From IMG/VR virus record IMGVR_UViG_2778261064_000019: a stretch of 35,546 bases of DNA; one strand, written 5' to 3'. Shown piece after piece: positions 1 to 35,015 of the stretch. Both the position numbers and the translations under genes were made by a program. Under the pieces are notes generated by a model, which saw nothing but the letters and a program-made list of their open reading frames with translations, ran no database searches and was not told the origin of the DNA. Every line of letters starts with the position of its first letter. Position 1 is the stretch's first letter. This DNA comes from a virus (Duplodnaviria > Heunggongvirae > Uroviricota > Caudoviricetes).

Positions 1-1200
1 ATGCTGACCGATACCAAACTGAAAAACCTCAAAGCGCGGGAAAAACTTTATAAAGTTGCAGACCGTGATGGGCTGTATGTAACCGTATCTCCCAAGGGAT
101 TGGTGACGTTTCGCTATGACTATCGAATCAATGGTCGTCGTGAAACGTTAACTATTGGTCGCTATGGTGACGGTATTTCTCTGGCGCAGGCGCGCGAAAA
201 ATTAGTGGAAGCCAAAAAACGCGTAAATGCAGGAATATCGCCCGCTGGAGAGAAGCGTGACGGTAAAACAAAGCGAAAAGAAGAAAAGACACTCCACGAT
301 TTTACCGTCAGCTACATGAAACACACCCGGCTGGCGGACAGCACAAGGGCGATGAAGCAAAGCATTATCGACAGAGACATCACGCCAGTATGGGGGCGCA
401 AGCTGCTGTCAGAGATAACCCCCTCTCTCCTACGTGAGTATTGCGACAAGATAAAAGCGCGTGGTGCGCCAGCGACGGCGATTCAGGTTCGCAATATCGT
501 TAGTGCGGTATTTAAGTTCGCCGCGCTTCACGGCGACTATTACCCCAATCCTGCCGAAGAGGTTTTACCGGCTTCAATTGCGACATTCGAAGCGCGCGAC
601 AGGGCGCTCAAGCCAGAGGAGATAGGCTGGTTTTTCAATCAGCTTGAACAAACGGGTACATTACCCACCATCAAGCTGGCCATTAAATTGGTTTTATTAA
701 CGATGGTACGTAAAAGTGAACTGCTGAACGCTCCGTGGGGTGAGGTTAATTTTAATGCCTGCCTTTGGACGATTGACGCCAGCCGGATGAAGGGATCACG
801 GGATCATAATGTTTATCTGTCCCGGCAGGCACAGGACATTCTGATTGCCCTGAAAATGTGCGCAGGAAGCAGTGATTGGGTTTTGCCTTCATGCAATCAG
901 TCGTCGCATAAGACCATGTCGGCGGCGACCTTAAACCGGGTCATTAATCTTACGGTTAAGCAGGCGCAGGAACGGGGGATCAGGCTGGCGTCGTTTTCCG
1001 TTCACGATATGCGCCGAACGGCATCGACGTTATTGCATGAGGCGGGGTTTAATTCCGACTGGATAGAAAAATGCCTCGCGCACGAGGAAAGAAGCGTCAG
1101 AGCCGTTTATAACAAAGCGGAATACGCAGAGCAGCGCCGTGATATGTTGCAGCAGTGGGCGGATATGGTTGATGGGTGGATCAAGCAATACCGCCCGTAA
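1..1200 (+). CDS. int: Tyrosine integrase, P4/CP4-57-like family
   Basis: 399-aa ORF. N-terminus LTDTKLKNLK...DGLYVTVSPKG...FRYDYR is typical of P4-type integrases; C-terminal region HDMRRT...AHEERSVRAVY fits the tyrosine-recombinase catalytic region. ORF starts at the window edge, so the true 5' end and the att site are not visible. Confidence 0.85.
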   Translation: MLTDTKLKNLKAREKLYKVADRDGLYVTVSPKGLVTFRYDYRINGRRETLTIGRYGDGISLAQAREKLVEAKKRVNAGISPAGEKRDGKTKRKEEKTLHDFTVSYMKHTRLADSTRAMKQSIIDRDITPVWGRKLLSEITPSLLREYCDKIKARGAPATAIQVRNIVSAVFKFAALHGDYYPNPAEEVLPASIATFEARDRALKPEEIGWFFNQLEQTGTLPTIKLAIKLVLLTMVRKSELLNAPWGEVNFNACLWTIDASRMKGSRDHNVYLSRQAQDILIALKMCAGSSDWVLPSCNQSSHKTMSAATLNRVINLTVKQAQERGIRLASFSVHDMRRTASTLLHEAGFNSDWIEKCLAHEERSVRAVYNKAEYAEQRRDMLQQWADMVDGWIKQYRP

Positions 1201-1203
1201 GTA

Positions 1204-1458
1204 CTATGCGGGGATCTTGGTACCAGAGCGCTTTGGGACTTTGGCCAGATTTTTCTGTACCGCGTTATCAATATGGTGATGGTTATTTTCCTGCCGTGCT
1301 TTGAGCCAGCGTTCCACTTCCTCTTTGTCCCACGCGACGGCGCGCTTCGTTAGCGCAAAACGTTTGGGAAACAGGCCTTTTTGCTCCAACGCATAAATCG
1401 TACTTTCAGAGAGTGGCACCATCTGTAAAAGCACGTTTTTTCTAATGGCAATTTTCAT
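1204..1458 (-). CDS. AlpA-family HTH regulator / excisionase-like protein
   Basis: 84-aa ORF convergent with int (3-bp gap). Segment STIYALEQKGLFPKRFALTKRAVAWDKEEVERWL resembles AlpA/phage regulatory protein family. Start may be the internal Met at 1422. Confidence 0.65.
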   Translation of the reverse strand: MKIAIRKNVLLQMVPLSESTIYALEQKGLFPKRFALTKRAVAWDKEEVERWLKARQENNHHHIDNAVQKNLAKVPKRSGTKIPA

Positions 1459-2856: not shown

Positions 2857-5514
2857 TTAACGTTGAAAAACCCAACACTTCACCGTCGCCGGGCGGCGCG
2901 GTGCGGCTGGGTAACGGCGGTTAAATTCAGCGTTGATGCCGCTGTTAACCGTTCTGACTTCAATAAACTTGTGGGTACGGCTGGTTTTTAGCACTCGCTT
3001 CAAATCGCTGATCGGCGGGATCTGCTGGCGGCGCTCGGTAGCCAGTTGAATAAAGTGGTTAAGGTTAACGGCGATAAGCTGTTCATCGCGCGAGTGGTTG
3101 AGCTGTGGTTCGTCGTCGCCATCGAGGAAGTCGAAAATATCCCAGAACTCCTGCACCAGAGGATGGTCGGCGCTGATGGCCTGTTGGCGCTCCAGACTGA
3201 GGCGGATAAACATTTCTCTGGTCGCCTGTAGCTGCTCTTCCGTGACCGGAATAACCAGCGCCAGCGCGTCGAGCAGCGCCATAAGCTGGGCGTGGTTTTT
3301 AATGATGCGGATATGGCGAATATCTGGGTGGGAGTGAAGTTGCTGCTCGTATAGCGGGATCTGACGGTTAACGCACTCCAGCACGGCCTGTTCCGCCAGC
3401 GCTGCCTTCAGCATAAAGCCGGAAAGCTGTTCTACCGGCAGGCGTTCGAGCTGCTCGGCAGCGACCTTGGTCTGAGTATTCTGGCCGCTGCGGTCGGTGT
3501 ACAGGTGAATAATACGTTCCAGCACCGGGTTAGAGGCGCTAACATCGGCGTTTTGCGCAATCACAATCGCGCCCCGGAACGGCGGTTCATAGGTCTCGTT
3601 GCCGCTGTTACGCAGACCGCGAGAACGCACCGACCGCCCGTTATAGGCGGTTTTCAGCTCTTCCCAATCAAAGCCACGCTGCTTTGCCCCCTCCTGATTA
3701 CGGTCACCCTCGATCAGCACCACCGGCATATTTGCTACCTGCGCAAAGTTGCGCGCGCGGGCGGCCAGCGTTGATTTAGACGGATCGAAACCTTCATAGT
3801 CGCGTCGGCCCAACAGTTTTCAGAGGAACTCTATCAGCGTGGTTTTACCGCTGCCGGGTTCGCCAACGATTTCCAGAAATGGAAAGCTCTTGTGCTTGTC
3901 GCGGATCTGTTCGGCAAACATCGTCCCAAACCAGTACGCCAGCGCCACAAACCCCTTTGCGCCAAACGCCTGCCAGAGTAGCTGGGGCCACTGGCTGTCC
4001 ATCTGTTTTAAATTGTCGTTCAGCGTCAGGCTGACCGACTGGTTCAGGCTTTTAAGGCTAAGTTTGCCCATGTCGAAGAAGTCTTCTTCGTTGAGTGTGT
4101 ACAGCCGACCATCGCGAACGGCCAGATCGTTGAACACGTAAGCGCGGTATTCTTTGCTGTAGCCGATAAAATCAGTGGTCTGGACAGTTTTGATTTTGGG
4201 AAGCTGCTTGAGCAGCAACTTATCTAACTGCTGACTGGTGCCGGTGAAGATGCCGCCCTGCGCGATATGCAGCAGGCGCTTTTTGAATTCTGAGCCGCTG
4301 GAAAGTTGGGAGCCGGTGAAGGTGTTTTTTATCGGTGGAGTGTCGTCGGGGAAGTTAATGCGAAAGTAATACCAGCTTTCGTCGGTAATGGTGTTGGCCT
4401 GATAGTAGAGGGTGGTCGGGTAGCAGTTGGCTATCTCAACAACGGCGGCTGACTCCTGTAGCGCTTTATGTTTGGCTTCTTCTTCGTCCAGCTCCTCTTT
4501 GCCGTTATACATCACGTTATCAAAGGCACGCATATAACGGTCAATATCCAGCTTGAACCAGTACAGGCGGCTGTCGAACTCGAAGTGAAACTCTTTGCGT
4601 TCGGTACGCTCATGCATCAGTAATGCTTTGGCATTCGGATTGGGAGCGATCAACAGTGAACCGTAGTAACGATATTTTTTAATCAGATCCGGGTTTAGCC
4701 GATCGCGCTGGTGCAAATCGTTCCAGTCCAGCTTGGTGCGGGAATAGGGCGTTTGTGCGGCGGTGGAAAGCCAGCCGTCGTCGCGGCTGCGTTTTACCCA
4801 GCGGCGGGTGTAATTCATGCCCGCTTTGTCGTTATCCAGCGCCCAGACCAGTAAAGGACGCTTTTTATCCACGAACAGCGCGGCCAGTTGGCTTAACGCC
4901 TGCGCCGGATAGTTGTTACAGGTCATCAGGGAAACGGCGGCAATGCCGTGGTGGTGCAGGGCGATAGCGTCAAAAATGCCCTCAACCAGCCAGATCTCCT
5001 GCTGTTCTTCCAGCTTAAGCGTTGGCAATTGCCACCATAGCCCGCTGTAAGCGCCGTGAAAATTGGCTTTGCGATCGCCGAAACGCTGTGGGCGGTCAAC
5101 GATCCGCTCCCACCACACGCCGTCAGCCAGCGGGAAACGCACAGTGGCCGAGCCGAGATCGCGCCGTGCGTCATAGTAGTTCTCTTGAGCGTAACAGTTA
5201 CGGAGCAGCGAAAGGTCAAAGCCGCGCATCTCGCGCAGGTAGGCATCGGCGGCGGCCTGTGGGTTTTCCGGGGTTGGGGGATATCTGTCTGACCAGCTTT
5301 CAAATAGATCCGGGTACACCTCTTTGATATGGATTTCGGCATTGCATTTATTCAGGCGACCGCAGCGCAGTACCCACGGGCTGATGGCGTAGGTGTACAG
5401 CTCTTTTTTCTGGCAGTCCGGGCAGACGCCCTGCCGCAGCCAGTCGCCCTGTTCTTTAAAGGAAAAATCGGCTAGCAGTCGCCGCGTAATTTCCTGATGA
5501 AGTTGTGGTTGCAT
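2857..5514 (-). pseudogene. P4 alpha-like primase-helicase interrupted by an in-frame TGA (fragments 3820..5514 and 2857..3813)
   Basis: The two ORFs are in the same frame, separated by a single TGA at 3820..3822 (translation ...GEPGSGKTTLIEFL*KLLGRRDYEGF...). N-terminal Cys-rich zinc-binding motifs (CPDCQKK, CGRLNKC) and a Toprim-like segment (LVEGIFDAIALHHHG); Walker A (GEPGSGKTT) sits just before the stop, and the helicase region continues after it. Confidence 0.6.
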
Positions 5515-6495: not shown

Positions 6496-6535
6496 CGAGT
6501 AGAATGAATTTGGTTATTGTCTGTATGGAGGCAAA

Positions 6536-7108
6536 ATGAAGTTGAATAATCTGGTTGCTCTTTACAGGAACATGACAGAGCAAAAATTGGATAGGGTTAA
6601 ATTCCCATACAGACACAATAATTTACATTTTGATGTATTTTTCTTTATTGATGGAAAACCGTTTGAGCTTCTTTTCGGAGCATTAGGCGCTAATCTTTGC
6701 TTTCGTCTAAAAGTCGAGAAGGGATTCGTCATAAATCCTAATCTGGGAAGTGAGACTTATAAAGAATTATGCAAGGCGCTAGGTTTGAAATATGACCCTG
6801 CCAATCCATTTAGAACAAGTAAGTTTTTTGAAGATTTTGATGGGAAAATCCCTACATCGGTTACTGTTAAGAATAAGGCAAAATATACTGATATTGCTGT
6901 GCATGTCAGGGATGTTGAAGAAGCAGACAGAATATATTTCTGTGGATGGAAAAACAACAATGAAGAAAAGAGTCATGTTACTGAAGATAATTTAAAGAAA
7001 ACGAAAGAGTTTTTAGGGTATCAGGCTTTTCTTGTTTGTAAGGAAAAGAATATTAGCAGTAGATGGACTGATTTAGAAAATAAAGCAAAAGATTTTTATT
7101 TACCATAG
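6536..7108 (+). CDS. Hypothetical protein, AT-rich cargo operon gene 1
   Basis: 190-aa ORF with GGAGG-like RBS before the ATG. Strongly AT-biased codon usage unlike the flanking phage genes. No family recognised. Confidence 0.6.
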   Translation: MKLNNLVALYRNMTEQKLDRVKFPYRHNNLHFDVFFFIDGKPFELLFGALGANLCFRLKVEKGFVINPNLGSETYKELCKALGLKYDPANPFRTSKFFEDFDGKIPTSVTVKNKAKYTDIAVHVRDVEEADRIYFCGWKNNNEEKSHVTEDNLKKTKEFLGYQAFLVCKEKNISSRWTDLENKAKDFYLP

Positions 7109-7122
7109 GATTGTGAGGTTAT

Positions 7123-8271
7123 ATGTCTGATATTTCATTAGGGTGCGTGGTTGTTCATAGGTTGATAAAAGAGCAACATAAAGATTTCGATCACTCAAAA
7201 CCATATAGTCGCCGTGATACGGTTCTTGACCGAAATAATGAAATCGTAATTAAACTAGTGTCCAGTATAGCCGCATTGTATGGTAAAAAATCTAATAGCT
7301 CGCATTATGGTATATTTAATTTAGATGAAACACGCAGGGGGCCTTTTCCAGCGGAATTTGATAAATATCGGAATGATACATCCAAGAAGTTAGACGATGA
7401 ATTGTTTATAGGATTATCAAAAAATGTTATGCATCAGTTATATATTGAGGCAAAGGATCGACCTGCTGCATCAGGAGGATTACTTCTTTTTGCTGATTAT
7501 ATCAGTAAATCCGTGCGTTACTTTCTTATTGCAATGATTAAGCAAAAGGAAGGTATAGTTATTAGTGATAAATTAGAGCCAAAGGAGTTAGAGCATCTTG
7601 ATCTGGCAAAACTAAACCAGGCGGCACGAATAAACTATGATTTGTATGATAAATATATTTCCGCTGATGAGAATGAAAGACAGGATGTTAATTATTTAAG
7701 TTTTGTTAGTCCCAGTTCTAACCAGACAACTTCAGGGTATTTCATTACTGCCTTAGGTTGTGATAAAGGTAATACATCAACTAAAGCTACGAGTAATTTA
7801 ATTAATGAATCTTTTAACTTCTTCAGAAATCATCAAGAATTAAAGGATAATGCCCGTAAATTTAAAAATGAAATTATTGAGTATTTATTCGATTGTTCTG
7901 AAAATAACATTTCAGCTAAGCTCTCTGTTGTTAGTGAGATGGCGGCGAAGCATATGGTTAATTTAGAAGATGACATTAAAGATAAATTGTCAGAAGAATT
8001 ATATGCTCATTTGAATAGTGAAAGTATTCGTGTGCCTGTGGAATTTAGGGTAAGCAAATCAGTAGTTAAGAAAAACAGAAATATTAAATATACAAGTGAT
8101 AATGTTAATTTTGAGTTTAAATCTAGTTTACTAGGCAATACTCTTGATAATGAGATATGCTATAATAAGAAAACTGGACATTTAACTTTTACTCGGATTA
8201 CTCCTGAGAAAAAAAGTGAAATAGCTCAATTGCTTGATGAGTTAATAAAAGAAAGAAATAGCGAAAAATAA
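7123..8271 (+). CDS. YejK/NdpA-like (NA37 family) nucleoid-associated protein homologue, cargo gene 2
   Basis: 382-aa ORF, 14 bp after gene 1 with a GTGAGG RBS. Full-length pattern similarity to E. coli YejK as recalled: MSDISLGCVVVHRLIK vs MSLDINQIALHQLIK; ASGGLLLFADYISKSVRYFLIAMI vs [25 protein letters not shown]. Not verified by search. Confidence 0.6.
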   Translation: MSDISLGCVVVHRLIKEQHKDFDHSKPYSRRDTVLDRNNEIVIKLVSSIAALYGKKSNSSHYGIFNLDETRRGPFPAEFDKYRNDTSKKLDDELFIGLSKNVMHQLYIEAKDRPAASGGLLLFADYISKSVRYFLIAMIKQKEGIVISDKLEPKELEHLDLAKLNQAARINYDLYDKYISADENERQDVNYLSFVSPSSNQTTSGYFITALGCDKGNTSTKATSNLINESFNFFRNHQELKDNARKFKNEIIEYLFDCSENNISAKLSVVSEMAAKHMVNLEDDIKDKLSEELYAHLNSESIRVPVEFRVSKSVVKKNRNIKYTSDNVNFEFKSSLLGNTLDNEICYNKKTGHLTFTRITPEKKSEIAQLLDELIKERNSEK

Positions 8272-8282
8272 GGTTGCTTAAT

Positions 8283-8912
8283 ATGTCATGTTTTGAAACG
8301 GTTGTTGAGCTTTTCAGATATGTAGGGCGTCCTAAATTTGATGCTATTAATAATCGTTTTTCAGCAACTATTTCTTATGATGCTCATATATATGAACTCT
8401 TAGTTTCTTTGCAACCTCATACAGCGTGGGGAGAAATTGAAGAGATTGTCATTGATGATGTGGATATAGATGTTGATGATAGCCTTCCCGCTAAAGGAAC
8501 ATCAATAACACTGACAATCTCTATATCAACTGGAGCTAGTGAGTCATTTTTTATCGATATTAAAGATCTAATTCAAAAGTCTCCGATGTTAAATAGAGGT
8601 ATTTTAAGAAAGTCTTTTTACTTGGTTGAGGAAGATTTTTATTTTAATGAAGGAATGGTTGAGGGATTAGCAAAAATACCAGAACTATCTGTTTTAAAGA
8701 ATCTTTGTGATTTTATTTTATGTCTATCAAAAGTTGCACACTACAGCAATAGTAAAAGTGATGATGTATGCCATAAGTTAGTTTTCTTGAAAAATACTAA
8801 TGCTAAGTCATTACCTTTAATTATTGAAACTAATGTTGATTATTCACTTCTTTTAACAGGTATTAAGGATTTAAAAATCATCGAATCTTTTTCTGATGAA
8901 AAAAAGCTATAA
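8283..8912 (+). CDS. Hypothetical acidic protein, cargo gene 3
   Basis: ORF track starts at TTG 8274; the first ATG is at 8283, about 11 nt after the gene 2 stop. Contains acidic stretch EEIVIDDVDIDVDDS. No family recognised. Confidence 0.55.
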   Translation: MSCFETVVELFRYVGRPKFDAINNRFSATISYDAHIYELLVSLQPHTAWGEIEEIVIDDVDIDVDDSLPAKGTSITLTISISTGASESFFIDIKDLIQKSPMLNRGILRKSFYLVEEDFYFNEGMVEGLAKIPELSVLKNLCDFILCLSKVAHYSNSKSDDVCHKLVFLKNTNAKSLPLIIETNVDYSLLLTGIKDLKIIESFSDEKKL

Positions 8913-8956
8913 CGGATGATAATTATTTTGAGCGAAAAGGGATTTTCATTAATACG

Positions 8957-9538
8957 GTGGTCGATTTTCTTGAATCAATCGATGTAAAGAAACAGTTTCA
9001 TTTTTTATTCTGTGAGTGGGATGAATTTCTAAAACTATACCATAATAACCTCGGTGTATATCTTAGTGGTTTTTCATTTCATAAAGTAAGAAAGGAAGTG
9101 GCAGAGGCAGAAGCTAATTTAGCTGAGCGTTTTTCAAAAATAATGTCAGACATGATAGCTAAGCTTTTAGGTATTCCTGTTTCTTTGGTTGCTACTTTTG
9201 GCATGATAAAATTAAATACCCTGCCGGAAATGTTAGTGGTTTTTTTAGGTGTATTGCTCACGTCGATAATTATGTTTTTTATTGTAAGAAGTCAATACAC
9301 ACAGTTTAGGATGATTTGTGATGCTAAAGATATTATATTTTCCCCATTAGTGAAAAAATCTGTAGGTTATACAGAAGATTTGAAAAAATTAGTATGCAAT
9401 GCAAAGGATAATTTAGACAAAAATCAGGTCATGTTAAATCGTTACCTTCTTTTCTTTCAATGCTTATGCTGGATTCCGACAGCCTTAGGTGGTGGAATGA
9501 TCTTAATGGCTATTATGGTTCATTTAGGATTACTATAA
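8957..9538 (+). CDS. Predicted multi-pass membrane protein, cargo gene 4
   Basis: Hydrophobic segments IPVSLVATFGMI, MLVVFLGVLLTSIIMFFIV and YLLFFQCLCWIPTALGGGMILMAIMVHLGLL. Track start is a GTG at 8957, so the true start is uncertain. Stop codon overlaps the gpD stop convergently. Confidence 0.5.
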   Translation: MVDFLESIDVKKQFHFLFCEWDEFLKLYHNNLGVYLSGFSFHKVRKEVAEAEANLAERFSKIMSDMIAKLLGIPVSLVATFGMIKLNTLPEMLVVFLGVLLTSIIMFFIVRSQYTQFRMICDAKDIIFSPLVKKSVGYTEDLKKLVCNAKDNLDKNQVMLNRYLLFFQCLCWIPTALGGGMILMAIMVHLGLL

Positions 9539-17382: not shown

Positions 17383-18077
17383 CCTGATGAGTAGTCGTAA
17401 CCCATAACCGCCTGCACCTCCGTCAACGCTTCAACGGCGGCAATATGCTGCTGGGCAGCGGCGAACAGGCGCATATCGTGCGCCATTGTTTCGGTTTCAA
17501 ACCGGGCGGCGATCTCGTTGGTTAGTTCAATCAGGTTGTGATTTTTGGTCTGCCACATTAAGCCTGCCGGTATTTGTTTAGCCACGCCCATTTTGGTGAG
17601 CGAGAGCTGCTGGATGCGGCTGTTAGCGTCGCTGTGGAAATGGTGATTATCGATGATGATGTAGTCAGCGGTGATTCGATCGCGATACTGCTTTATTTCT
17701 GCCACCTTTGCCTGTCGGGCTTTTTCGATATCGGGCTGCCAGCGTTTGCCGTCCCAACGGACAAAGGCGTTATCGGGCTTCAGCAGAGTGACGTTATCCG
17801 GCAATGGCCCCAGATGATGAAGCTGTACCTCACTGCCCGCATCGGTATCAAACGCGGTTTTACCGCGATGATCTTCTACCGCAAGCCATGTTTCTCCGTT
17901 GAATGTCAGGGCAAAGCCGCTCTGGCATTCGGGCGGTTCGATAGTGGTACAGCATTCCGGTAAGCCGGTGTTGGGGGCGATATAGGCGTCGCTGACGCCG
18001 ATAAATTCCTGAGTATCTGCCGCGTAGTTAAAGATGCGCAGGGTTTGCGGTTCGTCGGAAAATGCGAATGTGCTCAT
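17370..18077 (-). CDS. Putative tail fibre assembly protein (gpG position)
   Basis: 235-aa ORF directly after the tail fibre gene with a 4-bp overlap. Assignment is by position only. Confidence 0.5.
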
Positions 18078-19339
18078 GCCAGCCTCACGATATAGTTGAA
18101 AGCGATATTTTTAACGGTGTTTTCGGTGTTCCCGGCGGCGTTCACCGTAATAGTGTGGCTGTGGGAACCCAAGGCGATAGCGTGGTTATGCGCGCCGATA
18201 GTCAGCGAATGGGTATGAGCGCCGATGGCTACTGTGTGAGTATGGACACCGTCTGTACTGGTTCTGAATTTGTAGTTATCCCAGTCTGTGTCTGCAGACC
18301 CCTGATTATTACGGGTACTGTCGAAGTAACCGTGACGTCCACCGCTGGCTTCACCCCATCCGCTGTCGTGGTTGTGAGCACCGGCTGACGCTGTTGATTT
18401 TGTCCCGTAGTCAAACGCGCTGGTATTTTTAGTACCCAAATCGGTGGAACTGGCAGTTTTAGTGCCTAAATCTGTGTTAGTGGCGCTGGCTGTGTGACTA
18501 TGAGATTTAACGCCATCCTGTTCCTGAGACAGTATCGAGCGTCCGCTGGCGGGTTTCCCCTTGATTGTCCAGCCGCGCATATCCGGGATTACCCCAGAGG
18601 GGTAAGCGATTGCCAGTTTAGGGTAGGCGGTTTTATTGAAGGACTGACCGACCATCAGGGCGTAGCCGCTGGGGATTGCATCGGATGACCACGGTATCGG
18701 CGTGCCGACCGGACAGGTTTCCGCCGCCAGCGCTTTGTCTACTGCCGCTTTCACCGCCTTGGGCGTGGCGGCCAGTGTTTCGCTGATGCTGTTGGTCGCA
18801 CTGCTTAATTGAGTAAAACCTTTGGCAGTTAACGTGGCGTCAGGATGGTTACGGGACTGCACGTGGCACGTCAGGCTTTCATCCACATACTGTCTTGTTG
18901 CCAGCACCACGGCAGGGTCGATTTTCAGCTCCACGTTTTCCGTATGGGAGACAATCAGCACCATGCGGATAATCTGCGTGCGGCCCGAACCTTCGATTAA
19001 CTGCGGCTTGTAGGTTGGCGGGCAGTTGCCGACGGCAATCAGCCGGTCGTGCTCGTCGTACAGGCCAATTTCTCTGATCCACCATCCGCCTACATCCTCC
19101 GGTAGTACCTGTTCGGCAATAATCTGGTTGGGGTTGTTAGGGTCAATACTGAGCGTATTCAGCGGCGCACGTCGGCGTTCGTTGATTAACCGGGTTTGGC
19201 CAGTCTCCGGTGTTGGCAGGTTACCGTTTCCGTCGCCCACGGCCATTTGCGTCAGATGAAGAGGTGAACCCTGTGCGGTGGCGGTCGCCAGCGCGGATTC
19301 GCCGGTAGTGGTTAATAGCGTGAAATAGGTAGCGCTCAT
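18074..19339 (-). CDS. H: Tail fibre protein (gpH-like)
   Basis: 421-aa ORF with a gpH-like N-terminus ([20 protein letters not shown]...MAVGDGNG) and C-terminal Gly/His-rich repeats (TDLGTK x2, GAHTHS / GAHNHA / GSHSHT). Confidence 0.75.
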
Positions 19340-21905: not shown

Positions 21906-22241
21906 TTAACCGTGCGCAGCCTTCATCAGTGTATCGTTAATCCACTGGTTAACGCTTTTACCGGAGACTTCTGCCGCAACGTTAATGGCAGAGTGAATTT
22001 CAGGTGGAATACGCAGGCTGATTTTTCCGCTGGCCGGACGCAACGGCTCCCGGCCCCGTTCCTCGCAGTAAGCCAGATAGTCGTCTACCGCCTCTTCAAA
22101 CGCTTTACGCAGATCGGCAACATTATCGGCATGAAAGCCAATGACATCCCGAATGCCTGCAACGTGACCAACAATGCATTGATCTTCATCGCTGTATTCA
22201 ATTTTTGCGGCATAGCCTCTATATGTCATGGTATTCATCAT
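21906..22241 (-). CDS. hicB: HicB-family antitoxin
   Basis: 111-aa ORF 4 bp-overlapped with the upstream hicA-like gene. C-terminal RHH-like segment (KISLRIPPEIHSAINVAAEVSGKSVNQWINDTL). Confidence 0.75.
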   Translation of the reverse strand: MMNTMTYRGYAAKIEYSDEDQCIVGHVAGIRDVIGFHADNVADLRKAFEEAVDDYLAYCEERGREPLRPASGKISLRIPPEIHSAINVAAEVSGKSVNQWINDTLMKAAHG

Positions 22242-22501
22242 GGTGTTACCCCTACAGCTTCAAGGAATGTTCTGGCATCGCGAACCTGATAGGCTTTCGC
22301 TTCTTTTTCCGGGTGTGGACGATGAAATGAAGCCACAACCTGATTAATTTCAAACCTGACGCGGGAACCGTTTCCTTCCGTAGCAATAGCCCCCAAAGCA
22401 ATAAATAAGGCTTCTATTTTTCGCCATTCCAGCGTGACAGGTGTTGGCGTAGAAAAAACAGCTTGTAAGGTTTTTTTATGTTTGGCGCTTAACGTATTCA
22501 T
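22238..22501 (-). CDS. hicA: HicA-family toxin (mRNA interferase)
   Basis: 87-aa ORF with GS..RF.......FHRPHP.KE pattern consistent with the HicA fold, in hicA-hicB order. Confidence 0.65.
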   Translation of the reverse strand: MNTLSAKHKKTLQAVFSTPTPVTLEWRKIEALFIALGAIATEGNGSRVRFEINQVVASFHRPHPEKEAKAYQVRDARTFLEAVGVTP

Positions 22502-26608: not shown

Positions 26609-26797
26609 ATGGCGAAGAATAGCAGTCCTGCCAGCCGATACGGTATCAAGGTCGTAAAAAGAGACAGTATGAGCGGGCAGTTTGTACCCGTCGAAATGAA
26701 GCTGGACGGCCCGGAAGGTGAGCGTGTGATTAAAAAGTCGGCAGAGCGTATTTATGCCAGACACAACAAAGTCATTAAGGCGCTGGCTAACCGATGA
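26609..26797 (+). CDS. Putative antitoxin partner of Doc (family unassigned)
   Basis: 62-aa ORF whose stop overlaps the doc ATG (ATGA), the classic coupled toxin-antitoxin arrangement. Sequence does not resemble Phd as recalled. Confidence 0.45.
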   Translation: MAKNSSPASRYGIKVVKRDSMSGQFVPVEMKLDGPEGERVIKKSAERIYARHNKVIKALANR

Positions 26798-27171
26798 TTG
26801 ATGCACATTTGGTGATTGGAATTCACGACTTTATTCTTGCTCATGAGCCGGGATTGGTTGGTTATCAGGATGCTGGCCGGGTCGAGGCAACACTGGCACG
26901 GGTGGATAACCGTATTCTGTATGAGCAGATGAATGATATTTTCCAGATCGCCGCATCTTATGCGGTTGCCATCGCCAGAGGGCACGTTTTTGCTGATGCC
27001 AACAAGCGAACGGCACTGGTGACGGCGTTGACATACCTTGATATGCAGGGTGTGAACCTCAAGCGAACACAAAAGCTGGAAGATATTATGGTGGATGTGG
27101 CTGAGGGAACGCTAAATCTGGATGATTTAGCCGATATTTTCTATACCCTTAGTGATGTAAATGCTTCCTGA
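26794..27171 (+). CDS. doc: Doc (death-on-curing) / Fic-family toxin
   Basis: 125-aa ORF with the Fic/Doc active-site motif HVFADANKRTAL. Confidence 0.8.
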   Translation: MIDAHLVIGIHDFILAHEPGLVGYQDAGRVEATLARVDNRILYEQMNDIFQIAASYAVAIARGHVFADANKRTALVTALTYLDMQGVNLKRTQKLEDIMVDVAEGTLNLDDLADIFYTLSDVNAS

Positions 27172-28763: not shown

Positions 28764-29779
28764 GCGTCTTTATCCTCAAACTTGATGTTTTCAAACAGGC
28801 AACCGCAGCCGAAGTCTTCCACCACAAAGGCATCGTTGGAAGACTCGAAGTTCTCTACCCGGTCACGTTTGGGGTTATCAATAATGGCGCGGCGGCGGGT
28901 GCCTTTCTGGACATAGATAGACAGGTTACTGAAGGCGGTGACCAGAATGGTGTTGTGCGGGAAACCCGGCACGCGCACGGCAGGGCGACTGCCGATGGTT
29001 TTCTGGCTGACCAGAATCTGCCCCGCCAGTTTTTCGCTGTTCTCATTGTGCTGGTTGAGGATCGGGAAGTATTTGTCGTGCAGGACGCCACGGCCACAAA
29101 TGGCGACCAGATCTGCGCCGTCGACATGCCATTCGTCAATCAGGTTTTCTTCGCCGTCATTGACCATGGCGTCCAGATTCTCATAGTCGCCGCCTTTGCC
29201 AATGATGATTTTGCCGGAACCTTCCACACCTTCGTTCATGACGCGTTCCGGGGCGTGATCGCGATACTGCTGCAGCCAGCCTTTGTTAACGTCCTGCAGA
29301 AGGGGGTAACGCTGGAAGTCGGTCTGGGCTGCAACGAGGATACCGTTGAAGCCAATCAGGATGCGGTCTAATCCCTGTCGCCGGGTGATGCTGTCGCGCA
29401 CGCGGATCTGAAAATCTGGGTGGGCGGCCCATGCGTCCAGTTTGGCGTATTTCAGCGCGGTATCGTAGTTGGTTTTTTCGCAGCGGTAGCGGTTAGTCGT
29501 CATTGACGTGGGGTCGACGGGTTCACGTTCACGCTGACTGGTATCGGTACGACTGGCCGTGGGGCGATCAATGCCGATACCGACTTTTTCACCTTCCTGA
29601 TCCACCACTTCATGGACGTTGATTTTGGTCAGGAATTCTACGGACGCCTGAATTTTGGTTTCCAGCGTCTGCTGTACGGAAGGTTCTACCGTGAATTCGA
29701 CGGCGGCGCTCTGGACACCGGACAGCCCGGCGACGGTTTCAACGTAAGCGTTGTATTTTAAGCGGGTTTCGTTACGCAT
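28760..29779 (-). CDS. N: Major capsid protein gpN-like
   Basis: 339-aa ORF following the scaffold gene, size as P2 N. Confidence 0.85.
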   Translation of the reverse strand: MRNETRLKYNAYVETVAGLSGVQSAAVEFTVEPSVQQTLETKIQASVEFLTKINVHEVVDQEGEKVGIGIDRPTASRTDTSQREREPVDPTSMTTNRYRCEKTNYDTALKYAKLDAWAAHPDFQIRVRDSITRRQGLDRILIGFNGILVAAQTDFQRYPLLQDVNKGWLQQYRDHAPERVMNEGVEGSGKIIIGKGGDYENLDAMVNDGEENLIDEWHVDGADLVAICGRGVLHDKYFPILNQHNENSEKLAGQILVSQKTIGSRPAVRVPGFPHNTILVTAFSNLSIYVQKGTRRRAIIDNPKRDRVENFESSNDAFVVEDFGCGCLFENIKFEDKDA

Positions 29780-30772: not shown

Positions 30773-32557
30773 ATGCCGCCAGACATCGAAAAACATCTGC
30801 TTGCCCTTCAGGACGAAGATCCACGCCGTAAAGCCCGCTATCTGTACTGGCAGGGTTTTCGCATTGCGCGGATCGCTGAACTATTGGGGGTGAAAGTTAC
30901 CACGCTGCATAGCTGGAAGCGGCGCGATGGCTGGGACGAATCCGCCCCGCTGGAGCGGGTGACGGCGGTGACCGAAGCGCGGCTGATCCAGCTCACGGTG
31001 AAGGAAAATAAGGAGGGAAAGGATTTTAAGGAGATCGACCTGCTCTGGCGGCAGATGGAGCGCGGGGCAAGGGTTGAACGCTATCAGCAGGGGGGCAATG
31101 AGGTCGACCTGAACCCTGCTCTTGCGAAGCGTAACGCCGGGCCGCGCAGACAGCCGGAAACCAACCATATCAGCGAGGAGCAGGCGGAGAAGCTGAAACA
31201 GTTATTTCTGGACGGACTGTATCCGCACCAGAAACACTGGTACCGCGCCGGGCTGGAACACCGTATCCGCGATATCAACAAGTCGCGCCAGATTGGGGCG
31301 ACGATGTTCTTCGGGCGGGAAGGATTTATGGATGCGGTGGAGAGCGGGCGCAACCAGATCTTTCTCTCGGCCTCCAAAGCGCAGGCGCACCAGTTCCGCC
31401 AGTACATTGTCGATTTTGCTCGTGAGGCGGATGTTGAGCTGAAGGGCGAAGTCATTCACTTGCCGCATAATGATAGCCGGATGTATTTTCTCGGCACCAA
31501 TGCCCGCACCGCCCAGACCTATCATGGCAACCTGTATCTGGATGAATACTTCTGGATACACCGCTTTTTGGAACTGCGCCGTAACGCGGCGGGGATGGCC
31601 AGCCAGAAACGCTGGCGGCAGACCTACTTTTCCACACCGTCCAGCATTACCCACGAAGCCTATAAGTTCTGGACAGGGCAACTGTTCAACAAGGGCAGGC
31701 CGAAGAGCGAACAGATTCGACTGGATATCAGCCATCGGGCGCTGGCGGCGGGGCGTCTGTGTGAAGACGGCCAGTGGCGGCAAATCGTCACCGTTGAGGA
31801 TGCCATCAATCAGGGTTATGACCTGTTCGACCTTGAGCAACTCAGGCTGGAGAACTCGCCGGAAGAGTTCGCCAACCTGTTTATGTGCCAGTTTATCGAC
31901 GATACCGCATCGGTATTCCCACTAAGCATGTTGCAGGGTTGCATGGTCGATAGCTGGGAAGTCTGGGACGACTACAAGCCGTTTGCCCTGCGTCCGCTCG
32001 GCGAACGCTCGGTGTGGGTGGGGTACGATCCCGCATTAAGCGGTGACAGCGCCGGGTGCGTGATGGTCGCGCCGCCGGTCATTGAGGGCGGCAAGTTTCG
32101 GGTAATTGAAAAGCACCAGTGGCACGGGATGGACTTCGCGGCGCAGGCGGAAAATATCCGCAAAATTACCGAGCGCTATAACGTGACTTACATCGGTATT
32201 GACGTGACCGGCATCGGCCACGGCGTGCATCAACTGGTGAAACAGTTCTTCCCGGCAGTGCAGGCATTCTCTTATTCCCCAGAAGTGAAACAGCGTCTGG
32301 TGCTGAAAACGCTGGACGTTGTCCGTAAACGCCGACTGGAGTTTGACGCCGGATGGACGGATCTGGCGCAGGCGTTTATGGCAATTCGCAAAACCCTGAC
32401 TCCGTCCGGGCGTCAGGTGACCTTCGAGGCCAGCCGTTCGGAAGAAGTCTCCCACGCGGATCTGGCATGGGCGTGTATGCACGCCATTATCAATGAACCA
32501 CTGGAAAGCTCCGGCGGCGCGAACAGCGGGCGGGGCTTAATTAAGGTGTACGGATGA
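30773..32557 (+). CDS. P: Terminase large (ATPase) subunit gpP-like
   Basis: 594-aa ORF, size and divergent position as P2 P. Confidence 0.9.
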   Translation: MPPDIEKHLLALQDEDPRRKARYLYWQGFRIARIAELLGVKVTTLHSWKRRDGWDESAPLERVTAVTEARLIQLTVKENKEGKDFKEIDLLWRQMERGARVERYQQGGNEVDLNPALAKRNAGPRRQPETNHISEEQAEKLKQLFLDGLYPHQKHWYRAGLEHRIRDINKSRQIGATMFFGREGFMDAVESGRNQIFLSASKAQAHQFRQYIVDFAREADVELKGEVIHLPHNDSRMYFLGTNARTAQTYHGNLYLDEYFWIHRFLELRRNAAGMASQKRWRQTYFSTPSSITHEAYKFWTGQLFNKGRPKSEQIRLDISHRALAAGRLCEDGQWRQIVTVEDAINQGYDLFDLEQLRLENSPEEFANLFMCQFIDDTASVFPLSMLQGCMVDSWEVWDDYKPFALRPLGERSVWVGYDPALSGDSAGCVMVAPPVIEGGKFRVIEKHQWHGMDFAAQAENIRKITERYNVTYIGIDVTGIGHGVHQLVKQFFPAVQAFSYSPEVKQRLVLKTLDVVRKRRLEFDAGWTDLAQAFMAIRKTLTPSGRQVTFEASRSEEVSHADLAWACMHAIINEPLESSGGANSGRGLIKVYG

Positions 32558-33534
32558 ATAACTCAATGGCTTTCACCTTCGGTGAACCTGAAGCCCTGCT
32601 GGACAGGCGGGAAATACTGAACTATCTGGAGTGCGTGGACTTTGGCAAATGGTATGCGCCGCCGGTGGATTTTAATTCGCTGGCGCTGTCGTTCCGCGCT
32701 TCGGCGCATCATACCAGCCCGATCTGCGTGAAGCGCAACGTGCTGGTTGGTACCTTCATACCTCATCCGTTGTTGACCCGGCAGGCGTTCAGCCGCCTTG
32801 CGCTGGACTATCTGGTATTCGGCAATGCCTATCTGGAGCGGCAGGATAACCGGCTGGGCCAGCCGTTAACGCTGGTGCCTGCGCTGGCGAAGTATGTCCG
32901 GCGCGGCAAGGCGCTGGACAGCTATTTCTTTGTTCAGCCCGGTAAAGTGGATCATGAGTTTGCGTCGGGCAGTATCGGCCACCTGCTGGAGCCGGATATC
33001 AATCAGGAAATCTACGGCCTGTCGGAATACCTCTCTGCGCTGAACGCGGCATGGCTGGATAACTCCGCCACGCTGTTTCGCCGTCGTTACTACAAGAACG
33101 GCAGTCATGCCGGTTTCATCCTCTACCTGAGCGACCCGGCCCACAACGAGGCGGATATTGGGGCGTTACAGGAAGCGCTAGCGAACAGCCGTGGCCCCGG
33201 CAACTTCCGCAATCTGCTGATGTATCTGCCGAACGGCAAGCCAGACAGCGTAAAGGTTATCCCGATTGGCGAGGTGGCGGCGAAAGATAACTTCTCCGAT
33301 ATCAAGAGTGTCAGCCGTGACGACCAGTTAGCTGCGCACCGGGTACCACCTGCGCTCATGGGCGTGGTACCGAGTAACGCCGGTGGCTTTGGTGATGCCA
33401 TCAAAGCGGCGAAGGTATTCAACTGCAATGAGATCGAGCCGCTACAGGAACGGTTCAAGGAGCTGAACGACTGGCTGGGGCTGGAGGTTATTCGCTTCAA
33501 AAAGTACCGCCTTGCCGACGACGATTCAGAGTAA
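32554..33534 (+). CDS. Q: Portal protein gpQ-like
   Basis: 326-aa ORF overlapping the P stop by 4 bp. Confidence 0.85.
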   Translation: MNNSMAFTFGEPEALLDRREILNYLECVDFGKWYAPPVDFNSLALSFRASAHHTSPICVKRNVLVGTFIPHPLLTRQAFSRLALDYLVFGNAYLERQDNRLGQPLTLVPALAKYVRRGKALDSYFFVQPGKVDHEFASGSIGHLLEPDINQEIYGLSEYLSALNAAWLDNSATLFRRRYYKNGSHAGFILYLSDPAHNEADIGALQEALANSRGPGNFRNLLMYLPNGKPDSVKVIPIGEVAAKDNFSDIKSVSRDDQLAAHRVPPALMGVVPSNAGGFGDAIKAAKVFNCNEIEPLQERFKELNDWLGLEVIRFKKYRLADDDSE

Positions 33535-33579
33535 CCCCACCAACGACCAGCTCACTATCAGAGCCACCATGCGCCATTC

Positions 33580-33603
33580 AGCCCGCTTCCTGCGGGCTTT
33601 TTT
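33580..33603 (+). terminator. Rho-independent terminator after the portal gene
   Basis: Stem AGCCCGC / GCGGGCT with a 5-nt loop, followed by TTTTT. Confidence 0.65.
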
Positions 33604-33853
33604 ACGCCTTCTCACCGCCAGAATCCCCGGTCAGCACCGCCAGCGCGCGGTTGTGACCCCGCCACGCCTGCGCAGTAAATAGATCGCTTTTTTTGCACTG
33701 GTGCGTAAGCGTCGGAGCGGGCCATAACGGGAGGGCGTGGTCGGGTTGCAGTTGCAGCAGAATCATGCGGATTTATACGCCCTGTGTATGCGCCAGAGAC
33801 GATCGGGAGGGCAATGCCACGATCCTTTCGGTATTTTTGGATCGCCTGTCGGG

Positions 33854-34138
33854 AAAAGGTAACCTCAGTAATTAGCAGTAAAAATAATGCTTATTCTATT
33901 GTTTATAAAAGAGAAATTTGGTTACCCCTAAAAGGTAATCTGAGGTAACCCAAAAGGTAACCTGTTTTATATTTTCATATAAATCATGATGTTACAAATT
34001 AGAAGACATCACTATTATAAAAGGTAACCTGATTACGCTTTGGTTACCAAAAGATTACCTTTCTCTGTTTTTGAAAAATCCTTTTTATTCATTAAGTTAT
34101 TTTGATTTTTCGTTGCAGGTTACTAAGGTTACCTTTTT
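33854..34138. repeat. Cluster of about nine AAAGGTAACC-type short repeats in both orientations
   Basis: GGTAACC/GGTTACC cores at 33858, 33920, 33944, 33956, 34023, 34042 and 34127, plus GGTAATC variants at 33933 and 34053. Most are flanked by an A-tract; three sit at 11-12 bp spacing (33933, 33944, 33956). Region is A/T-rich and non-coding. Confidence 0.7.
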
Positions 34139-34407
34139 CCGAAGTCCCCACGGACTTTGGTATATATAGATAGGTTAAAAAGTAGCCGTTATGTTTGCCA
34201 GCTATTTACTTCCCATTCTTCCACTGGCCAGCATGTTAATATGCCCGGTAATGATAACTAGTTGCCATTGGGTTACTTTCTTCTGTGGACGGTAAAACTG
34301 ACGGTAAATTGGGTTGTGGGTCTCGATTTAGATTAGTAAAATCAAGTGATTAAGTCGACTGTAGATAATCGAGTGGGAATGATTTGATCCCTGCACTATG
34401 AATTAGC

Positions 34408-34437
34408 AAAACCCTCTGTTACTACAGAGGGTTTTTT
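34408..34437. terminator. Bidirectional Rho-independent terminator
   Basis: 9-bp stem AACCCTCTG / CAGAGGGTT with a 6-nt loop, flanked by AAAA upstream and TTTTTT downstream. Lies just after the stop of the minus-strand gene 34476..35015. Confidence 0.6.
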
Positions 34438-34475
34438 ATACTCACGAATCATAGGATTGAAGTTACTGACATCGC

Positions 34476-35015
34476 TTAGTTAAACCAGCTGTCCGATTTG
34501 TTTTCTTCTGCTTTGCCCACGCTTTTCATCAGATCGCGACCGCCTTCAGTCATATTCCTGTTTGCGTCAGCTTCAGATTGCACCACATCGGTTTGCGCAG
34601 CTTTGTGCTTCAGTTCCTGATCGATAAATTCGTTTTCTCGCTTAACGCGGGCTTCTTCTTTCGCCAGCGCCAGTTTTTGTTTCTGAATCTCTAAGCTGCG
34701 TAGCTCATCTTCATAACTTTGATCGCGTTTCTTGTCCGCAGTGGCTTCGGCGTCCAGTTTATCCTGACGAGCTTTCTTATTCGCCGCTGCCGTTGCCGCT
34801 CTTTTATTAGCCGCGGCCTGGGCGTTTGCGCGACGTTGCTTCTCTTGCTGGATTTCCCTGTTGCGCTCCGCGACCCATTCGTCATGCTGCCTTTGCTCTT
34901 CGTTTTTACCTTGCTGTTCCGCTTCTGCGACAGCAGAGAGTTGATCCTGCAATGATGAGGCGATAGCCGGATAGCTTAAGGAGGCTAAGATGGCGCAAAG
35001 AAAAACTTTCTTCAT
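34476..35015 (-). CDS. Secreted coiled-coil protein (likely host-encoded)
   Basis: 179-aa ORF with a signal peptide (MKKVFLCAILASLSYPAIA) and a Lys/Glu/Ala-rich coiled-coil body. Confidence 0.5.
   Translation of the reverse strand: MKKVFLCAILASLSYPAIASSLQDQLSAVAEAEQQGKNEEQRQHDEWVAERNREIQQEKQRRANAQAAANKRAATAAANKKARQDKLDAEATADKKRDQSYEDELRSLEIQKQKLALAKEEARVKRENEFIDQELKHKAAQTDVVQSEADANRNMTEGGRDLMKSVGKAEENKSDSWFN

Follow-up and report, generated by a model that had tools for sequence, protein, structure and literature searches.

The window, by which we mean the whole 35,546-nucleotide stretch of DNA analyzed here, carries close to its right end a dense array of short repeats that is probably the iteron replication origin of a phiCTX-type P2-like temperate phage, bound by the primase-helicase of that phage. 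The first-pass annotation of this DNA had recorded the repeats and offered four readings of them: arm-type sites of the integrase, sites for an AlpA-like protein, replication iterons, or part of the packaging region. The comparative evidence favors the iterons, through homology in register with arrays of related phages, linkage to the primase gene, and a P4-like repeat grammar. By analogy with P4, a combined ori/crr-like element would also fit this best-supported reading, with the primase-helicase as the presumed binder.

Results

A repeat array at the right end of a P2-like prophage

The prophage that makes up the window is P2-like (Peduoviridae), and its insertion site is the 3′ end of guaA. 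Its left-end genes encode, in order, a P4-type integrase, an AlpA-family protein, a Dam methylase, a DUF7673/FtsK-gamma protein, a primase-helicase, and ogr, and the tail, lysis, and head genes come after this block. At the right end, genes and sites follow the order portal, terminator, cos, array, integrase arm sites, and attR core. The landmarks used below are as follows.

1..1200 (+), P4-type tyrosine integrase (Arm-DNA-bind_3 and catalytic domain)
1204..1458 (-), AlpA-family excisionase or regulator
2857..5514 (-), phiCTX-orf37-type primase-helicase of 885 aa, with Zn ribbon, Toprim, P-loop NTPase, and C-terminal winged-helix-like domain
30773-32557, terminase, at the right end
32554-33534, portal, at the right end, which adjoins the host genes yfgI and yfgH
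33580..33598 (+), intrinsic terminator 3′ of the portal gene
33650..33668, cos cohesive-end sequence GTTGTGACCCCGCCACGCC, aligned with the cosL ends of P2, 186, phiCTX, and Smp131
34288..34308 (+), two direct GACGGTAAA repeats, the same motif being present on the attL arm and on both phiV10 attP arms
34371..34384 (+), attR core GAGTGGGAATGATT, a 14-bp duplicate of the guaA 3′ end

An initial candidate for cos at 33735-33753 was ruled out because the alignment with P2, 186, phiCTX, and Smp131 puts cos at 33650-33668, to the left of the array and separated from it by a gap of about 185 bp. Part of the cos core recurs in inverted orientation, as GGGCGTGGTCGGGTTGC, at 33733-33749, some 65 bp right of cos; this copy may correspond to the R4-R6 repeats annotated around the phiCTX cos.

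The attR core is identical over 14 bp to the guaA end at attL (L001 4810-4823) and to the phiV10 attP, so that the left attachment site and the matching core repeat, which the first-pass annotation had proposed to look for, have both been located. Host homology starts at the attR core in 5369 E. coli genomes. The array is inside the element, with 230-520 bp separating it from the core, and the first pass was right to place it at the element's right end, with the portal terminator on one side and the host genes on the other. NZ_CM148325 has the element between guaA and yfgI, with the same order of annotated genes and with 100% identity over the right-end segment (window 33500-34480). This right-end region is present in only four of 5426 complete E. 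coli genomes.

Several features of the element outside the array were also recorded. The offset between the window and NZ_CM148325 shifts by 397 bp across the tail region (window 18074-19339 versus L001 23120-24781), where the tail-fiber CDS measures 1662 bp in NZ_CM148325 and the corresponding ORF of the window 1266 bp; judged from this shift, the two prophages appear to differ by a tail-fiber indel or swap. Flanked by the CI-like repressor and gene D is a 3-kb island (6500-9500, GC ~0.32) that looks like a cargo or defense hotspot; its products are a DUF6037 protein, a nucleoid-associated protein, and two hypothetical proteins. HicA/HicB and a Doc-family toxin module are found among the late genes (21906-22501 and 26794-27171). 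In E. coli GMF054 (L004 2380-3883), the right junction of the prophage is GAGTGGGAGTGA, followed by a different, DUF262-led island and not by yfgI, which suggests tandem occupancy of the guaA site.

The repeats noted in the first pass are present, at a density far above that expected by chance. Where about nine copies had been counted, the copies are real and the number was too low: 12-13 GGTAAY/GTAAY half-sites lie at 33849-34143, in four clusters with an overall dyad symmetry. Exact GGTWACC sites start at 33858, 33920, 33944, 33956, 34023, 34042, and 34127, AAAGGTAATC variants at 33931 (+) and 34053 (-), and weaker GTAAT/GTAAC half-sites at 33868, 34031, and 34119, with a degenerate one at 34007; in the comparative alignment, these last four occupy conserved positions. 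The spacing first noticed as helical is that of three direct copies at 33931, 33942, and 33953, which are 11 bp apart. Within the 291-bp region, GGTAAY was observed nine times against a mean of 0.28 and GTAAYC 11 times against a mean of 0.27, counts that were reached in none of 5000 shuffles. A motif search of the whole window, one of the checks that the first pass had proposed, found that the motif is not common across the element: seven of the ten GGTWACC sites in 35.5 kb fall in the array, and AAAGGTAACC, at one mismatch or fewer, matches six times in the array and once elsewhere in the window. Outside the array the motif is rare, both in the element and in 8.5 kb of flanking host DNA, and no second iteron cluster with this motif was found elsewhere in the window. 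The region is noncoding and A/T-rich (GC ~0.30). From left to right the layout is T-left (→→), spacer, C-left (← →→→), spacer, C-right (→ ←←←), spacer, and T-right (←←), with the following parts.

33849..33874 (+), T-left terminal unit GTCGGGAAAAGGTAACCTCAGTAAT: direct half-sites GGTAAC (33858) and AGTAAT (33868) with a GGAAAA flank on the 5′ side; in register in nine arrays
33875..33915 (no strand), spacer 1, A/T-rich, not conserved in sequence (49% identity to Edwardsiella)
33916..33964 (+), C-left: inverted GGTTACC (33920), then direct GGTAAT (33934), GGTAAC (33944), and GGTAAC (33956), at a spacing of 10-12 bp
33965..34018 (no strand), central A/T-rich spacer with IHF-like AATCATGATGTTA (33982-33994, one mismatch) and the degenerate half-site ATCACT (34007); a candidate unwinding or bending region
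34019..34064 (-), C-right: direct GGTAAC (34023), then inverted ATTACG (34031), GGTTACC (34042), and GATTACC (34054), mirroring C-left
34065..34111 (no strand), spacer 3, A/T-rich, not conserved in sequence (57% identity to Edwardsiella)
34112..34143 (-), T-right: reverse complement TCGGAAAAAGGTAACCTTAGTAAC, with inverted half-sites at 34119 and 34127, mirroring T-left

From the start of T-left to the start of T-right the array measures 271 bp. Matches to the IHF consensus in the window array all carry one mismatch (33982 and 34045), and perfect matches occur in phiCTX, RSY1, and Smp131. The spacers of phiCTX that correspond to the central one also contain annotated IHF sites. The window copy of the array has no DnaA box of note, and Rfam returned no match at E values up to 1 across 33500-34480. 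Between the array and the integrase arm sites, at 34158-34167, lies an extended -10-like element, TGGTATATAT; the 25 bp that include it, CCCCACGGACTTTGGTATATATA, are all conserved in the Edwardsiella relative described below. Once the phage DNA is circular, the element would face int across attP, and it could drive transcription into the array.

Conservation of the half-sites in Edwardsiella

A prophage located at guaA in Edwardsiella ictaluri ATCC 33202 (L235) has a portal 95% identical to that of the window phage, together with the same cos, array, arm sites, and guaA-type core; the match between E. coli and Edwardsiella probably indicates recent spread between genera. The same strain holds a second array-bearing prophage (L230). 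The four half-site blocks of the window are 88.9% identical to their Edwardsiella counterparts, versus 57.7% for the three spacers (Fisher p = 1e-9), with values of 85% for T-left, 90% for C-left, and 89% for C-right. Outside the array, cos is 93% and the integrase arm sites are 90% conserved, and conservation drops to 57% over the 150 bp that separate cos from the array. By these identities, the half-sites are under purifying selection and the spacers are not. What is constrained are the short, oriented repeats and the distances between them, the pattern that a protein-binding array should show.

An in-register family of arrays

By these alignments, described below, the window array is the E. 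coli copy of a conserved block of about 290 bp that was first annotated in phiCTX and is homologous to it in register. In the phiCTX record (NC_003278), the segment 35100-35390 between attP and cosR is annotated as containing R3 repeats along with two IHF sites, and its sequence is a 290-bp array of AAAGGTAAT in both orientations. This repeat block has been on record since the 1990s, in the GenBank annotation and in Hayashi et al. (1993, Mol Microbiol 7:657, PMID 8469112), as cited in PMC12540744. No function for the R3 repeats was found in the GenBank record or the accessible literature. The same array, of about 290 bp and in the same place between attP and cos, is present in RSY1 (Ralstonia), Smp131 (Stenotrophomonas), and a Halomonas phage, and five metagenomic phages found via their portal genes carry it as well. 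Alignments of eight and of nine arrays are in register, half-site by half-site.

To follow the block more widely, we searched one genome per bacterial species for the exact terminal unit TCGGAAAAAGGTAAYNNNNGTAAY. It occurred in 89 genome stretches, most of them from gamma- and beta-Proteobacteria, and a P2-type portal gene lay inside the 8-kb stretch in 49 of the 80 examined. Both terminal units matched in 19 loci and were 266-270 bp apart in 17 of these (the window equivalent is 271 bp). For detecting arrays as such, 5-mer density was too noisy in GC-rich genomes, and a combination of 6-mers and low GC worked. The IMG/VR copies of the closest relatives (L096 and L097) are truncated directly past the portal gene and do not include the array region. 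One further locus, in Halomonas sp. QHL1 (L207 4665-4823), has two inverted terminal units only 135 bp apart, with no match to portal, primase, or integrase within 8 kb; it may represent half of an array, or what remains of one.

Some members of the family carry altered half-sites, which keep the same positions and scaffold, even the CATCGGAAAAA flank. The array of Escherichia phage ESSI2_ev239, a phage with a P2-type integrase and Cox, is built of GTCACA/ATCACA half-sites; those of L078 (17575-17870) and L088 (5820-6115) mix GCGATA with GTAATA (GGTAATA) half-sites; and that of Mae-JY29 (L177 11935-12205) is bipartite, with ACGGTA and TGGAAYA. The presence of two half-site sequences at fixed positions in Mae-JY29, L078, and L088 suggests a bipartite recognition or two binding partners. 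The public record of ESSI2_ev239 (L005, NC_049392) ends at 29128-29160 in the Nextera adaptor CTGTCTCTTATACACATCTCCGAGCCCACGAGAC and a poly-A run, and its left end is unannotated DNA beside tail genes that is not cos-like; the record looks incomplete or untrimmed.

Linkage between the array and the primase gene

In phiCTX-type P2-like phages, a large primase-helicase replaces gpA, the rolling-circle initiator of P2. We propose that this protein is the trans-acting partner of the array. The window primase is 58% identical to that of RSY1, 53% to that of ESSI2_ev239, 48% to that of phiCTX (over 885 aa), and 45% to that of Smp131, and the array was present in all six complete genomes with a phiCTX-type primase. 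In Pseudomonas phage phi3, whose primase is 34% identical, the array starts 72 bp past the primase stop codon, on the far side of the primase from int, and has the same grammar with at least 14 YGGAACA half-sites. P2, 186, and Fels-2 use gpA to replicate from an origin within gene A; they lack an array, nor would one fit beside cos, and seventeen further gpA-type loci have no array. By the placement in phi3 and by these comparisons of variants and absences, the array travels with the primase gene and not with the integrase, AlpA, cos, or packaging genes. The primase-type phages do cluster partly by portal sequence in a nearest-neighbor analysis, and the co-occurrence of primase and array could partly reflect common descent. 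A different set of five to six GCATGA/CATGCA repeats was seen 0.5-2.5 kb downstream of the portal in Fels-2 (L095 24271-24570) and in many gpA-type loci of L106-L175.

We compared nine primases by windowed identity and by partition analysis against half-site type. A small cluster at aa 101-113 and differences in the C-terminal wing were the only signals, and no primase domain tracking half-site type was found among the nine. The C-terminal region was modeled with a pLDDT of 94.5, its last 90 residues adopting a winged-helix-like fold in the model; the best structural matches were the self-loading initiator helicases Cch and SaPI Rep, with weak scores. A sequence search of the primase against the PDB gave no match, and among a plasmid collection only four phage-like records had a window-type primase.

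In the window itself, the primase gene has an in-frame TGA at 3820-3822, a TGG-to-TGA change that turns W565 into a stop just past the Walker A motif; the otherwise near-identical prophage of NZ_CM148325 has TGG at this codon. Because of this nonsense codon, the window prophage may be unable to replicate and its origin may not be in use in this strain.

Integrase, excisionase, and packaging readings of the array

The integrase (1..1200) is assigned here to the GACGGTAAA sites and not to the array. Close upstream of int, the attL arm carries three copies of GACGGTAAA (L001 4951, 4989, and 5015), and the pair at 34288-34308 probably represents the integrase arm-type sites of attR. The closest phage integrases, at 60% identity, are those of epsilon15/phiV10-type podophages; the phiV10 attP has the identical core and GACGGTA repeats on both arms, and phiV10 contains no GGTWACC anywhere in 5 kb and no array. 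Nor does the attL arm (L001 4822-5046) contain a GGTWACC or AAAGGTAACC-like site. The suggestion that the array extends the right arm of attP/attR by arm-type sites for the P4-type integrase could draw on the arm-binding domain of the enzyme, on a distance to the core of at most 520 bp, and on the repeated sites in the attP arms of P4 and lambda, but it is contradicted by these absences and by the use of GACGGTA on both arms. Moreover, phiCTX keeps its AAAGGTAAT array despite integrase arm repeats of the type GTTCCCA and a tRNA-Ser core, and in ESSI2_ev239 and phi3 the arrays accompany other integrases and are separated from attP by cargo genes or by the primase gene. We regard the arm-site reading as largely refuted by these sequence comparisons and as highly improbable. 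The window AlpA is 54% identical to that of phiV10, and with integrase, AlpA, and att features all in common with this array-less phage, the int-AlpA-att module is one shared with phages that lack the array. Even more improbable, then, is that the array binds the AlpA-family excisionase/regulator as a recombination directionality factor. Its gene adjoins int, and phased direct repeats in one att arm are a frequent target of directionality factors; against this stand the missing array of phiV10, the arrays of phages in which no AlpA was recognized, and a 290-bp dyad with 12-13 sites that is unlike known directionality-factor sites. No AlpA domain was found among the scanned small early proteins of phiCTX, Smp131, and ESSI2_ev239, and none is annotated in phi3. 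AlpA was recognized only in the window phage and RSY1, DUF7673 only in the window phage and phiCTX, and neither in ESSI2_ev239 or Smp131.

Linkage to cos speaks for a packaging role, in which the array would be an accessory site like lambda cosB, where gpM (the small terminase subunit) and IHF assemble beside cos. The array and cos lie close together (100-450 bp) in most genomes, and the linkage is broken in one lineage only, that of phi3. The distance is 100-210 bp in the window, phiCTX, RSY1, Smp131, and the Halomonas phage, no cargo genes lie between the two, and IHF sites are annotated within the phiCTX array. We nevertheless consider this reading distinctly unlikely, and the packaging option of the first pass is disfavored. 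P2, 186, and Fels-2 have the same terminase family and cos and a gpM about 50% identical, and they do without the array, as do the 17 gpA-type loci. The Fels-2 gpM, at about 50% identity to that of the window phage, is no more distant from it than the gpM of the primase-type Ralstonia phages. In phi3, six ORFs and 2.9 kb separate the array from cos, and its direct neighbor is the primase gene. As given above, the 150 bp from cos to the array are poorly conserved with Edwardsiella. Finally, P4 packaging by the P2 terminase needs cos alone.

Discussion

The mechanism that we envisage for the array starts from the primase-helicase, which would bind the half-sites through its C-terminal domain and oligomerize on the helically phased repeats, probably aided by IHF bending in the spacers. 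It would then melt an A/T-rich spacer, load itself, and prime theta replication of the circularized genome. The dyad layout would let two assemblies load head to head. Tentatively, and with less confidence than in the origin itself, the array may represent an origin cassette of fixed length that is widespread and is made of two inverted half-origins with P4-ori grammar placed 266-270 bp apart (about 25.5 helical turns), with head-to-head loading of the primase, wrapping or looping by IHF, and half-sites that can be swapped, or in some phages become bipartite, on an unchanged scaffold.

An alternative is a different function that is still linked to the primase. The array could be another kind of nucleoprotein site, such as a crr-like enhancer, a copy-control (handcuffing) site, an accessory site for multimer resolution, or a scaffold for attP/int transcription. 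The array resembles the ori as well as the crr of P4, a phage that depends on the two together; the fixed span of 266-270 bp suggests DNA wrapping or looping; the conserved TGGTATATAT element lies just beside the array; and the window phage also encodes an FtsK-gamma-domain protein. However, the window shows no second cluster of the motif and hence no separate origin, RSY1, ESSI2, and Smp131 lack the FtsK-gamma/DUF7673 protein, and no Xer-type core was recognized by eye. We consider such a function unlikely, if less so than a role in packaging.

No mapped origin for phiCTX-type P2-like phages was found in the literature. If the array is the origin, it provides a testable one for phages of Pseudomonas, Ralstonia, Stenotrophomonas, Halomonas, Edwardsiella, E. 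coli, and many other Proteobacteria, and it explains a repeat block that has been annotated without a function since the 1990s. It would also supply a set of natural specificity variants on one fixed scaffold and a correct attR annotation, in which the true integrase arm sites (GACGGTAAA) are told apart from the origin repeats. If the fixed-length cassette is true as well, the family would be a natural model for the co-evolution of initiator and origin specificity across the Proteobacteria. The repeat block itself is already known from phiCTX, and the window array is a further copy of it; what is new, to our knowledge, is its linkage to the primase, its dyad grammar of fixed length, and its wide occurrence among the Proteobacteria.

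Comparison with known systems

As annotated in the P4 record and as is well established, the P4 alpha primase-helicase binds 8-bp type 1 iterons in ori and crr. Both P4 sites resemble the window array in having short iterons in both orientations, a spacing of about 10-11 bp, and A/T-rich stretches. The P4 ori, with three tandem iterons, one opposed, an A/T-rich stretch, and two tandem iterons, has the grammar of one half of the window array. In the P4 crr, iterons make up a block of 300 bp; like the window array, this block lies across the attP core from int, at a distance of about 200 bp. The alpha protein has the same domain order as the window primase (primase, P-loop NTPase, and C-terminal DNA-binding domain, the last being putative in the window primase). 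In contrast, the P4 iteron sequence is TGTTCACC, and its ori and crr are split and lie 4.5 kb apart, whereas the window array is a single dyad block. By BLASTP, the window primase and P4 alpha gave only marginal colinear matches (Toprim, E = 0.066; Walker A, E = 0.011). Because the two primases are barely alignable, the likeness to P4 is best taken as analogy, or at most as remote homology. The iteron origins served by SaPI Rep and SCCmec Cch were also compared: the structural scores are weak, these proteins have no sequence similarity to the window primase and no primase domain, and their hosts are Gram-positive.

The epsilon15/phiV10-like phages, which also use guaA, are similar to the window phage in their integrase (60%), AlpA (54%), 14-bp core, and GACGGTA arm repeats. 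They differ in that the sites held in common sit at 34288-34384, outside the array, and in that phiV10 is without a GGTAACC array. The annotated counterpart is the R3 block of phiCTX. The phiCTX copy has more repeats and two annotated IHF sites, whereas the window copy has one-mismatch IHF matches only; the attachment site of phiCTX is a tRNA-Ser gene and not guaA, and its host and integrase also differ. Against these differences, the two phages belong to the same family and have primases 48% identical, and their arrays have in common a 9-bp motif (AAAGGTAAT in phiCTX and AAAGGTAAC/T in the window), a length of about 290 bp, a four-cluster dyad, and a position between attP and cos.
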